From a bacterium (GTDB taxonomy: Bacteria > Elusimicrobiota > Elusimicrobia > Elusimicrobiales > UBA9959), in assembly GCA_021789695.1 (NCBI GenBank), contig JAJYJH010000010.1, positions 6,240-70,239 of the forward strand: 64,000 bases of DNA, given 5' to 3'. Below are positions 25,870 to 27,155 of this stretch, in pieces (positions within the stretch are counted from its first letter, which is position 1; every line of letters begins with the position of its first letter). The translations under genes were made by a program, and so were the position numbers. Below the pieces are notes generated by a model. The model searched no databases and was not told the DNA's origin. It saw nothing but the letters and a program-made list of their open reading frames with translations.

Positions 25870-26163
25870 TCAGCAGCAGGAAGAGCCGTCGCCGCAGCCG
25901 CAGTCCGGTTCGGTGCCTTTAAGAAAGCCCATTCGTACGGCTTGCGCGCAGCCGACGCCTTTTTTTACGGTGATCGCTTGCGCCGGGCAGTTTTCGGCGC
26001 AGGCGCCGCATTCCATGCAGAGGTCCGCGTCGGTAATCGCCGCTTTCCGCCCTTCGATCCTGAACACGGCGTGGGGGCAGACGGCGGCGCACATGCCGCA
26101 GCCGATGCATTTGGCGGCGTCCAGCTTAAGGGTGGAGACCCCGCGCAGGTATTCCATCTTCAT
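25870..26163 (-). CDS. hgcB: mercury methylation ferredoxin HgcB
   Basis: 97 aa. Two CX2CX2CX3CP motifs (CIGCGMCAAVCP, CMECGACAENCP), an additional Cys in GVGCAQ and a C-terminal ...DCGCGDGSSCC. ATGA overlap with hgcA. Confidence 0.85.
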   Translation of the reverse strand: MKMEYLRGVSTLKLDAAKCIGCGMCAAVCPHAVFRIEGRKAAITDADLCMECGACAENCPAQAITVKKGVGCAQAVRMGFLKGTEPDCGCGDGSSCC

Positions 26164-27155
26164 AGGAGGAACCCCTTTGCCGCCAGCATGGCCAGCCCGG
26201 TCGCTAAGGCCAGGGCCTGCGCCGGCATGGCGAGGCGCATCTCTTTCTTCACTCCGGAAAGAGAGGTATAGGTGGAGGCTCCGGTGAAGTCCAGCCCGAT
26301 GAAAGAGGCTGCCGAGGCGTAAATCAGCGCTCTGGCGGCGAATTGGACCGCGCTTTGTTGCCGGGCCAGGGCTATCAGCGCCGCGACCAGCAGGCCGGCT
26401 GCGGCGCCTTTCACGGCGAAACTCCTGCCAGGCAGCCAGGGCAGTAGGGCGGGCACCAGCGCGCCGCCGGCGAACAGGGCCCCGGCGGTATAGGCCGCGT
26501 CCGCCCTGAAGCCGAGCAGGTACAGCAGCGCCGCCGCCGGCAGCATATACCTGCCGAAATTAACCAGCTGCACCGGGGCGAGTATCATCCTGTCGCTGAA
26601 ATCAAACCTCACCCGGCGCATCTCCGGCGTGGCGCGGCCCAGCCGCAGGTATTCCGGCAAGTCCTCCGCCCTGACCGGCCCGTAGACCACGGAGAAGCCG
26701 GTGCGGGCTTTTACCTTGTGGGCGCTTACTCCGGGCGCGCCGAGCTGCGGCAGGATGATGTTCCTGTGGCTGACCTTCTTCTCCAATCCTGTTTCGGAGA
26801 TGACCCGCGCCAACTCCAGTGTGCCGAAGGTGCCTTTGCCGGCGGCGCACCAGACATTTATGCCCTTGGTGTCCAGGACCAGGAGCCAGGCGTTCAGGCC
26901 GTTCAGGTTCGTGCGCAGGGCGTCGAAGCTCAGTTTGTAGTTGGCGCTGGCGAAGACCGGGGAGTCGGCGGCGGGGGAGCCCAGGGCGTAAAGGCCGGGT
27001 TTTACCCTATAGGCCATGCGGTTTATTCCCCAGCGGGCTTTCCAGACCGCCAGCCTGTCGGCCCGGGTGTAGTCCGATGAAACGGTTTCCACTGCGGAGG
27101 GCCGCACCGGGGTCAGCTTCGGGGAGAAAGTTACTTTCAGCGCGTTCTCGCTCAT
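26160..27155 (-). CDS. hgcA: mercury methylation corrinoid protein HgcA
   Basis: Cap-helix signature GINVWCAAGKGTFG in the N-terminal corrinoid-binding half, and about five hydrophobic segments in the C-terminal half. Start trimmed to ATG 27155 (MSENALKV...); the longer ORF runs into the arsR promoter. Confidence 0.9.
   Translation of the reverse strand: MSENALKVTFSPKLTPVRPSAVETVSSDYTRADRLAVWKARWGINRMAYRVKPGLYALGSPAADSPVFASANYKLSFDALRTNLNGLNAWLLVLDTKGINVWCAAGKGTFGTLELARVISETGLEKKVSHRNIILPQLGAPGVSAHKVKARTGFSVVYGPVRAEDLPEYLRLGRATPEMRRVRFDFSDRMILAPVQLVNFGRYMLPAAALLYLLGFRADAAYTAGALFAGGALVPALLPWLPGRSFAVKGAAAGLLVAALIALARQQSAVQFAARALIYASAASFIGLDFTGASTYTSLSGVKKEMRLAMPAQALALATGLAMLAAKGFLL

Follow-up and report, generated by a model that had tools for sequence, protein, structure and literature searches.

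Does the gene pair at positions 25870 to 27155 of the 64,000-nucleotide stretch analysed here (contig JAJYJH010000010.1; hereafter the window, meaning this whole stretch) encode the mercury-methylation proteins HgcA and HgcB, and what does its place beside an arsenic-resistance (ars) operon say about how it is controlled? Our analysis revealed a genuine, intact pair encoding orthologous HgcA and HgcB, whose host is an uncultured, Elusimicrobiales-like member of the Elusimicrobiota. For the locus as a whole, we are highly confident of the following explanation: the proteins are orthologous HgcA and HgcB, their owner is a candidate methylmercury producer, and hgcAB is probably arsenic-responsive through a palindrome shared with the regulator ArsR. 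The pair is laid out as follows.

hgcA: 26160-27155, minus strand; 331 aa from the ATG at 27155, with a corrinoid domain at about residues 20-175 and a domain of five transmembrane (TM) helices

HgcA cap-helix motif N100-V-W-C103-A-A-G-K107: 26835-26858, minus strand; the Cys103 codon is 26847-26849

HgcA transmembrane domain: 26163-26600, minus strand; residues 186-331, with the conserved motifs PALLPWLPGRSF and FTGASTYTSLSGV

hgcB: 25870-26163, minus strand; 97-aa ferredoxin with two [4Fe-4S] clusters, Cys72 and terminal Cys96-Cys97, overlapping hgcA by 4 bp (ATGA)

The initial annotation, made from the letters of the window, had named an hgcA-hgcB pair at these coordinates; both open reading frames (ORFs) and the quoted motifs are indeed present, and both products passed the NCBIfam equivalog cut-offs. 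In comparisons with profile hidden Markov models (HMMs), HgcA scored 417.6 bits against NF040863 (HgcA equivalog, cut-off 275), with residues 22-329 aligned on positions 1-324 of 325. HgcB scored 122.6 bits against NF040864 (cut-off 99), with residues 5-97 on positions 2-93 of 93. The hgcA frame stays open in the 5' direction as far as a TTG at 27380, and the family profile match begins only at residue 22.

HgcA shares its corrinoid fold with other proteins, and the ORF could in principle encode the gamma subunit of the corrinoid iron-sulfur protein (CFeSP) or a non-methylating fused HgcAB-like paralog. Close homologs are in fact annotated as 'acetyl-CoA synthase subunit gamma' in several source databases, and in a Pfam scan CdhD was the sole HgcA match, with HgcB matching generic Fer4. 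We attribute these labels to the fact that Pfam recognises no more than generic domains, CdhD and Fer4. The family assignment rests on the scores of competing curated HMMs, which told the two alternatives apart from HgcA: the score against the fused HgcAB-like model NF043039 was 206 bits, under its cut-off of 285, and that against the CFeSP gamma model NF003195 was 77 bits, under its cut-off of 306, whereas the HgcA model was passed. The CFeSP gamma match was confined to residues 49-171, and similarity to CFeSP covers about 120-150 residues only. HgcA carries a TM domain and a WC motif, neither of which is found in CFeSP. Moreover, hgcA and hgcB are two separate, unfused ORFs. We regard the chance that either candidate is correct as negligible; this alternative is effectively refuted.

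In alignments of HgcA with its homologs, Cys103 lies in an invariant NVWCxxGKG block: N100, V101, W102, C103, K107 and G108 did not vary in alignments of 19 and 74 homologs with 49-97% identity. In the TM domain, F290-T291-G292 in FTGASTYTSLSGV and P235, L238 and P239 in PALLPWLPGRSF were invariant in the same two alignments. A PDB sequence search with HgcA returned CFeSP large subunits only, which matched at about residues 49-170 with 26-28% identity. Here Cys103 aligned with the Thr at residue 374 of Carboxydothermus hydrogenoformans CFeSP (2h9a_A), which is reportedly the lower-axial position (Parks et al. 2013). The CFeSP gamma subunit of the Wood-Ljungdahl pathway (AcsC/CdhE; 2h9a, 2ycl, 4djd) has a homologous Rossmann-like corrinoid domain, corresponding to HgcA residues 49-170. 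In contrast to it, HgcA lacks the N-terminal [4Fe-4S] domain and the TIM barrel, possesses a TM domain, and has Cys in place of Thr374.

The structural comparison agreed with this assignment. A cofactor-free AlphaFold model of HgcA, built on the 74-sequence alignment, reached a predicted local distance difference test (pLDDT) score of 89.8 and a predicted template modelling (pTM) score of 0.81, and in it a soluble alpha/beta domain precedes five long helices (residues 193-213, 217-236, 246-265, 269-293 and 299-330). Its top Foldseek match was 9a0b_A, a chain of a computational model of the HgcAB complex of Pseudodesulfovibrio mercurii ND132 that is reportedly the work of Cooper and colleagues in 2020 (E 1.9e-19, 316 columns). 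The match extends over the full length of the structure, yet the identity is only about 42%. CFeSP chains ranked after 9a0b_A, with 126-152 columns that cover the corrinoid domain only.

HgcB has two cluster motifs of the form CX2CX2CX3CP, CIGCGMCAAVCP (C19/22/25/29) and CMECGACAENCP (C49/52/55/59), and beyond the second cluster it carries Cys72 in GVGCAQ and C88, C90, C96 and C97 in its tail. The tail had been described as extended, a view that the comparison with homologs did not bear out. It counts 37 residues after the second cluster, against a median of 38 in the 66 homologs with both motifs locatable. Five Cys is also the modal tail count among 80 homologs, in which the pattern GTEPxC[GD]C...CC is common, GVGC is kept in nearly all, and 48 end in CC. 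The tail is therefore typical of the family. An HgcB homolog adjoins hgcA in 80 of 81 loci.

The whole pair resembles HgcAB of P. mercurii ND132 and Geobacter sulfurreducens in its two-gene unit, in the corrinoid domain with N(V/I)WCA(A/G)GK, in the five-helix TM domain, and in an HgcB whose two CX2CX2CX3CP motifs are followed by a Cys in mid-tail and a terminal CC. The established mechanism of mercury methylation by HgcA and HgcB is reportedly that of Parks and colleagues in 2013 for these two organisms. By analogy with them, HgcA would bind a corrinoid whose lower axial ligand is Cys103 of the putative cap helix, take up a methyl group and pass it to Hg(II), yielding methylmercury. HgcB, with its two [4Fe-4S] clusters, would re-reduce the cobalt, while Cys72 and the C-terminal Cys96-Cys97 would probably handle Hg(II) or methylmercury. 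The five-helix domain is expected to anchor the HgcAB complex in the membrane. The earlier wording 'candidate methylmercury producer' is in our judgement the right level of claim.

In HgcA of the Elusimicrobia clade, two loops of the TM domain are shorter, by about 14 and about 6 residues, than in the ND132 and G. sulfurreducens proteins; the two window genes also differ in their 4-bp overlap. The same shortening was seen relative to other phyla generally (alignment columns 262-275 and 327-332; about residues 216-219 and 265-268 of the window HgcA), and it makes HgcA of this clade unusually compact, at 325-334 aa.

An identical HgcA was found in one NCBI/ENA contig of 150.7 kb and one Logan run. 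The nearest named relatives are metagenome-assembled genomes (MAGs) of Elusimicrobia/Elusimicrobiales with 66-100% identity, among them the contigs labelled here L001 (81%), L002 (69%) and L003 (66%). The remaining members of a set of 596 genomic relatives share at most about 55%. Elusimicrobia had already been listed among the hgcAB-carrying putative methylators (PMC7438021; 10.1101/2020.03.10.983866). The locus is thus an ordinary addition to a known family, whose lineage, gene pair and arsenic association have all been reported previously. It provides one more intact Elusimicrobiota hgcAB locus, and the picture of who makes methylmercury is unchanged, since Elusimicrobiota were already counted as putative methylators.

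The most interesting part of the locus lies upstream of hgcA, where a complete ars operon is transcribed divergently across a gap of 70 bp.

arsR: 27226-27612, plus strand; ArsR/SmtB regulator (NF033788, 65.3 bits against a cut-off of 55), with in-frame alternative starts at 27208 and 27190

IscA/HesB-like gene: 27652-27960, plus strand; A-type carrier-like protein (PF01521, 40.4 bits against a cut-off of 26.3) with the Cys-rich tail GNCGDGCGCGH

arsC: 27971-28402, plus strand; low-molecular-weight phosphatase (LMWP)/thioredoxin-coupled type (Pfam LMWPc, 69.7 bits), with a CTGNSCRS P-loop and the VCD and ETCP cysteines

acr3: 28402-29457, plus strand; arsenite efflux permease (TIGR00832, 438.2 bits against a cut-off of 282.8)

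candidate shared ArsR operator: 27204-27227, no strand assigned; perfect palindrome ATATATGC-N8-GCATATAT in the 70-bp gap

Against TIGR02691 the ArsC product scored 115.5 bits, under the cut-off of 174.3. The operon resembles canonical arsRBC-type operons (E. coli R773 and chromosomal ArsR, with S. aureus pI258 CadC as a structural relative) in its ELCVC-type ArsR, its thioredoxin-type ArsC and its promoter palindrome. It differs from them in an Acr3 pump instead of ArsB, an inserted IscA-like gene, and a promoter region held in common with hgcAB.

In order to see how far this arrangement extends, we compared the nine further Elusimicrobia-clade contigs with enough flanking sequence (L001, L002, L003, L082, L084, L086, L087, L088 and L089; HgcA identity 57-86%). 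All nine showed the same layout, in which acr3, arsC, an accessory slot and arsR run away from hgcA and hgcB. In the clade contigs with gene calls, the gap between arsR and hgcA was 60-92 bp, and hgcA and hgcB overlapped by 4 bp. The accessory slot alone varied: it could be empty, or encode an IscA-like protein, a DGC-domain protein, or ArsP together with a thioredoxin-like protein. Among other phyla, roughly 12-15 of 77 loci (about 20%) had a homolog of ArsR, ArsC or Acr3 no further than 10 kb from hgcA. The initial annotation had called the head-to-head junction with a complete ars operon unusual. The linkage is real, but the layout is clade-wide and ars genes adjoining hgcAB were already on record (PMC7438021 Fig. 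6; 10.1101/2022.10.17.512643; PMC10349881). Diverse MAGs with ars-flanked hgcAB likewise have arsR, arsC and acr3 directly beside the pair (McDaniel et al. 2020, PMC7438021; Rifle MAGs, Gionfriddo et al. 2022). In comparison with these, the layout here is fixed throughout a clade and the operon includes an IscA-like gene restricted to Elusimicrobia.

This IscA-like protein (102 aa, encoded between arsR and arsC) keeps all three ligand Cys positions of E. coli IscA (1s98) in a profile alignment. The search turned up just 39 homologs; the named ones are all from Elusimicrobia, and many lie on HgcA-bearing contigs. Its role in the ars operon could be Fe-S repair under arsenic or mercury stress, or that of a thiol metallochaperone.

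Just past hgcB, the contigs L086 and L087 carry a further operon, arsR-arsP-Trx(-DGC), where Trx is thioredoxin. We searched the window for an intact arsP operon and found none; the only trace is a seemingly decayed arsR-arsP remnant at about 6450-7500 on the plus strand. It consists of a truncated ArsR-like ORF at 6491-6670, with 58% identity over 55 aa to the ArsR of the arsP operon of L086, and fragmented ArsP-like pieces at 6835-6993 and 7104-7496.

We then examined the short region between the two divergent units. The palindrome listed above occurs once in the window, which has a GC content of 62%, and 0.05 matches would be expected at three or fewer mismatches. L001 and L002 have an exact copy at the corresponding site, and L082, L086 and L087 a near-identical one, so that it is conserved among relatives in which the surrounding gap DNA has diverged. 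Read by eye on the arsR strand, the spacer of the palindrome contains TATAAT, 7 nt ahead of the arsR start codon, and the start codon itself falls within the right arm. The arsR transcript may accordingly have no leader or a very short one, and would be repressed by occlusion.

A second palindrome accompanies a second regulator. L084, L003, L088 and L089 carry a different ArsR-family protein, with 35-36% identity to that of the window, together with, in the gap between arsR and hgcA (7955-8003 in L084), a palindrome of the same geometry, of the type TTCGTTAT-N8-ATAACGAA (the L089 variant has a shorter spacer). Near hgcA this alternative palindrome is followed by TATAAT, which lies 6-7 nt before the hgcA ATG in L084 and L088 and about 21 nt before it in L089. 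The spacing in L084 and L088 suggests that the hgcA mRNA may be leaderless there. Regulator and palindrome appear to co-vary, as they should if the one binds the other and the two control hgcA as well. Taken together, these findings indicate that the palindrome at 27204-27227 is likely a shared ArsR operator.

The regulator itself has an alpha-3 site, ELCVCEL, which aligns with ELCVCDI of CadC 1u2w, and it lacks an N-terminal Cys pair; these two features place it nearer to the classical repressors of ars operons than to ArsR2 with its four Cys. Compared with the canonical alpha-3 ArsR, it lacks the third alpha-3 Cys and has an extra C-terminal CVxxxxC. For ND132, experiments demonstrated that ArsR2 controls hgcAB and that arsenic induces hgcAB (10.1101/2022.10.17.512643). 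The ND132 regulator is a four-Cys ArsR2, co-directional and co-transcribed with hgcAB and restricted to Desulfovibrionaceae (10.1101/2022.10.17.512643), whereas arsR of the window is transcribed away from hgcAB as the first gene of a complete ars operon. In the model that we propose, the ELCVC-type ArsR would bind at 27204-27227 and repress both divergent units. Thiophilic metalloids, most likely As(III), would release ArsR, and both arms would become de-repressed. By analogy with ND132, As(III)-responsive expression of hgcAB is the most likely regulatory model for this locus.

A simpler possibility is that the ars operon and hgcAB are mere neighbours, the palindrome serving arsR autoregulation only and hgcAB being constitutive or controlled from elsewhere. 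The palindrome of the window does adjoin the start of arsR, with 49-72 bp between it and the start codon of hgcA, and hgcAB is reported to be expressed constitutively at low levels in several model strains. A sigma-70 consensus scan of the gap between arsR and hgcA found no promoter, a result that counts for this possibility and weighs on our own reading as well. In contrast, a gap of 60-92 bp leaves little room for independent promoters, the alternative palindrome of L084, L088 and L089 lies directly beside a TATAAT just upstream of hgcA, and the layout has outlasted the replacement of the regulator. On balance we consider independent control a serious, although rather unlikely, explanation.

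Several further points tell against the explanation that we favour, in which orthologous HgcA and HgcB are made under probable arsenic control. HgcA residues 100-110, which include the cap-helix motif, were non-helical by DSSP in the cofactor-free model, with a pLDDT of about 74 for residues 101-110. The best PDB match of ArsR is CadC, and ArsR has only two of the three alpha-3 Cys of E. coli (R773) ArsR, the third being absent. The palindrome is a putative operator, and As(III) a presumed effector. Furthermore, hgcAB transcript levels in ND132 were no predictor of methylation rates (10.1101/2022.10.17.512643), and the papers that we found list Elusimicrobia as putative methylators only; we found no report of an experimentally tested member.

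Alternatively, HgcAB might primarily belong to an arsenic or metalloid response. It would then, for instance, use its corrinoid to methylate or handle As(III) or some other thiophilic metalloid, with Hg methylation as a side reaction. Consistent with this, the ArsR-headed linkage to arsC and acr3 is strict across the clade despite swapped regulators and accessory genes, a second arsR-arsP-Trx operon flanks hgcB in L086 and L087, and the ars genes near hgcA in about a fifth of the other-phyla loci point the same way. An ND132 hgcAB knockout was also more sensitive to As(V) (10.1101/2022.10.17.512643). That effect, however, was seen for As(V) and not As(III), and it varied with culture conditions. 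Moreover, most hgcAB loci have no ars genes nearby, and the synteny could reflect a shared metal-stress island, as RND, CDF and chromate transporter genes are also near. We consider a primary arsenic function improbable.

A stronger version would make hgcAB of Elusimicrobia a fixed member of an As(III)-responsive ars regulon, which would be controlled through the shared bidirectional operator and would also take in the IscA-like protein. If true, this would imply that the native, selected role of HgcAB in the lineage is the detoxification of arsenic or metalloids, for example by corrinoid-dependent metalloid methylation or a hand-off to efflux, and has nothing to do with mercury chemistry. We give it a slim chance, and retain orthologous HgcAB under probable ArsR control as our reading.

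The new elements of the locus are the clade-wide fixed divergent layout, the two candidate operators and an IscA-like protein confined to Elusimicrobia. We found no earlier description of them, and they would not surprise a specialist; the alpha-3 ELCVC site of the ArsR is a further modest detail. The running texts of PMC7438021 and 10.1101/2022.10.17.512643 (figures excepted) mention neither the divergent arrangement nor the operator. The value of the locus is modest and concerns the regulation and native function of hgcAB. The clade is the cleanest genomic case that we have seen of hgcAB tied to a complete ars operon. Its shared control region of 60-92 bp, with a candidate operator, offers a testable handle on the link between arsenic and mercury proposed from ND132.

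On the other side of the pair, 125 bp downstream of hgcB, lies a gene that the initial annotation had singled out as a P3A-like P-type ATPase.

P3A-type (H+) P-type ATPase: 23327-25744, minus strand; TIGR01647, 694.6 bits against a cut-off of 615.5

Its identity and position were correct, and its adjacency to hgcB is not conserved in more distant relatives. We rejected a functional link between the ATPase and hgcAB, as other genes lie downstream of hgcB in L001, L082, L084 and L086-L089 (blastp, independent gene calls), and weak P-type ATPase matches, at 24-30%, were present in three unrelated loci only. Since the downstream gene differs elsewhere, the adjacency appears to be confined to this strain and those closely related to it, and it probably has no significance. 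Behind hgcB there is a weak hairpin followed by a run of T, but terminator-like sites were not enriched over shuffled sequences.

Further genes of the neighbourhood are listed below.

TetR-like protein (by eye): 7562-8164

OEP-MFP-RND genes: 8177-13618

chromate transporter: 16566-17744

CDF cation efflux protein: 17991-18896

phosphonate-type binding protein: 29773-30684

MFS transporter: 30753-32096

FadL/TodX porin: 32246-33472

WD40 protein: 33555-34484

The regions 7562-18896 and 29773-34484 of the window are thus rich in efflux and metal-handling genes, several of which recur beside ars-hgcAB in related contigs. Finally, a DUF438-hemerythrin-PAS_10 protein (3062-4219, plus strand) adjoins ABC-2 transporter genes at 494-2709, and the same set is found, in a different order, near the hgcAB-ars block of L084.

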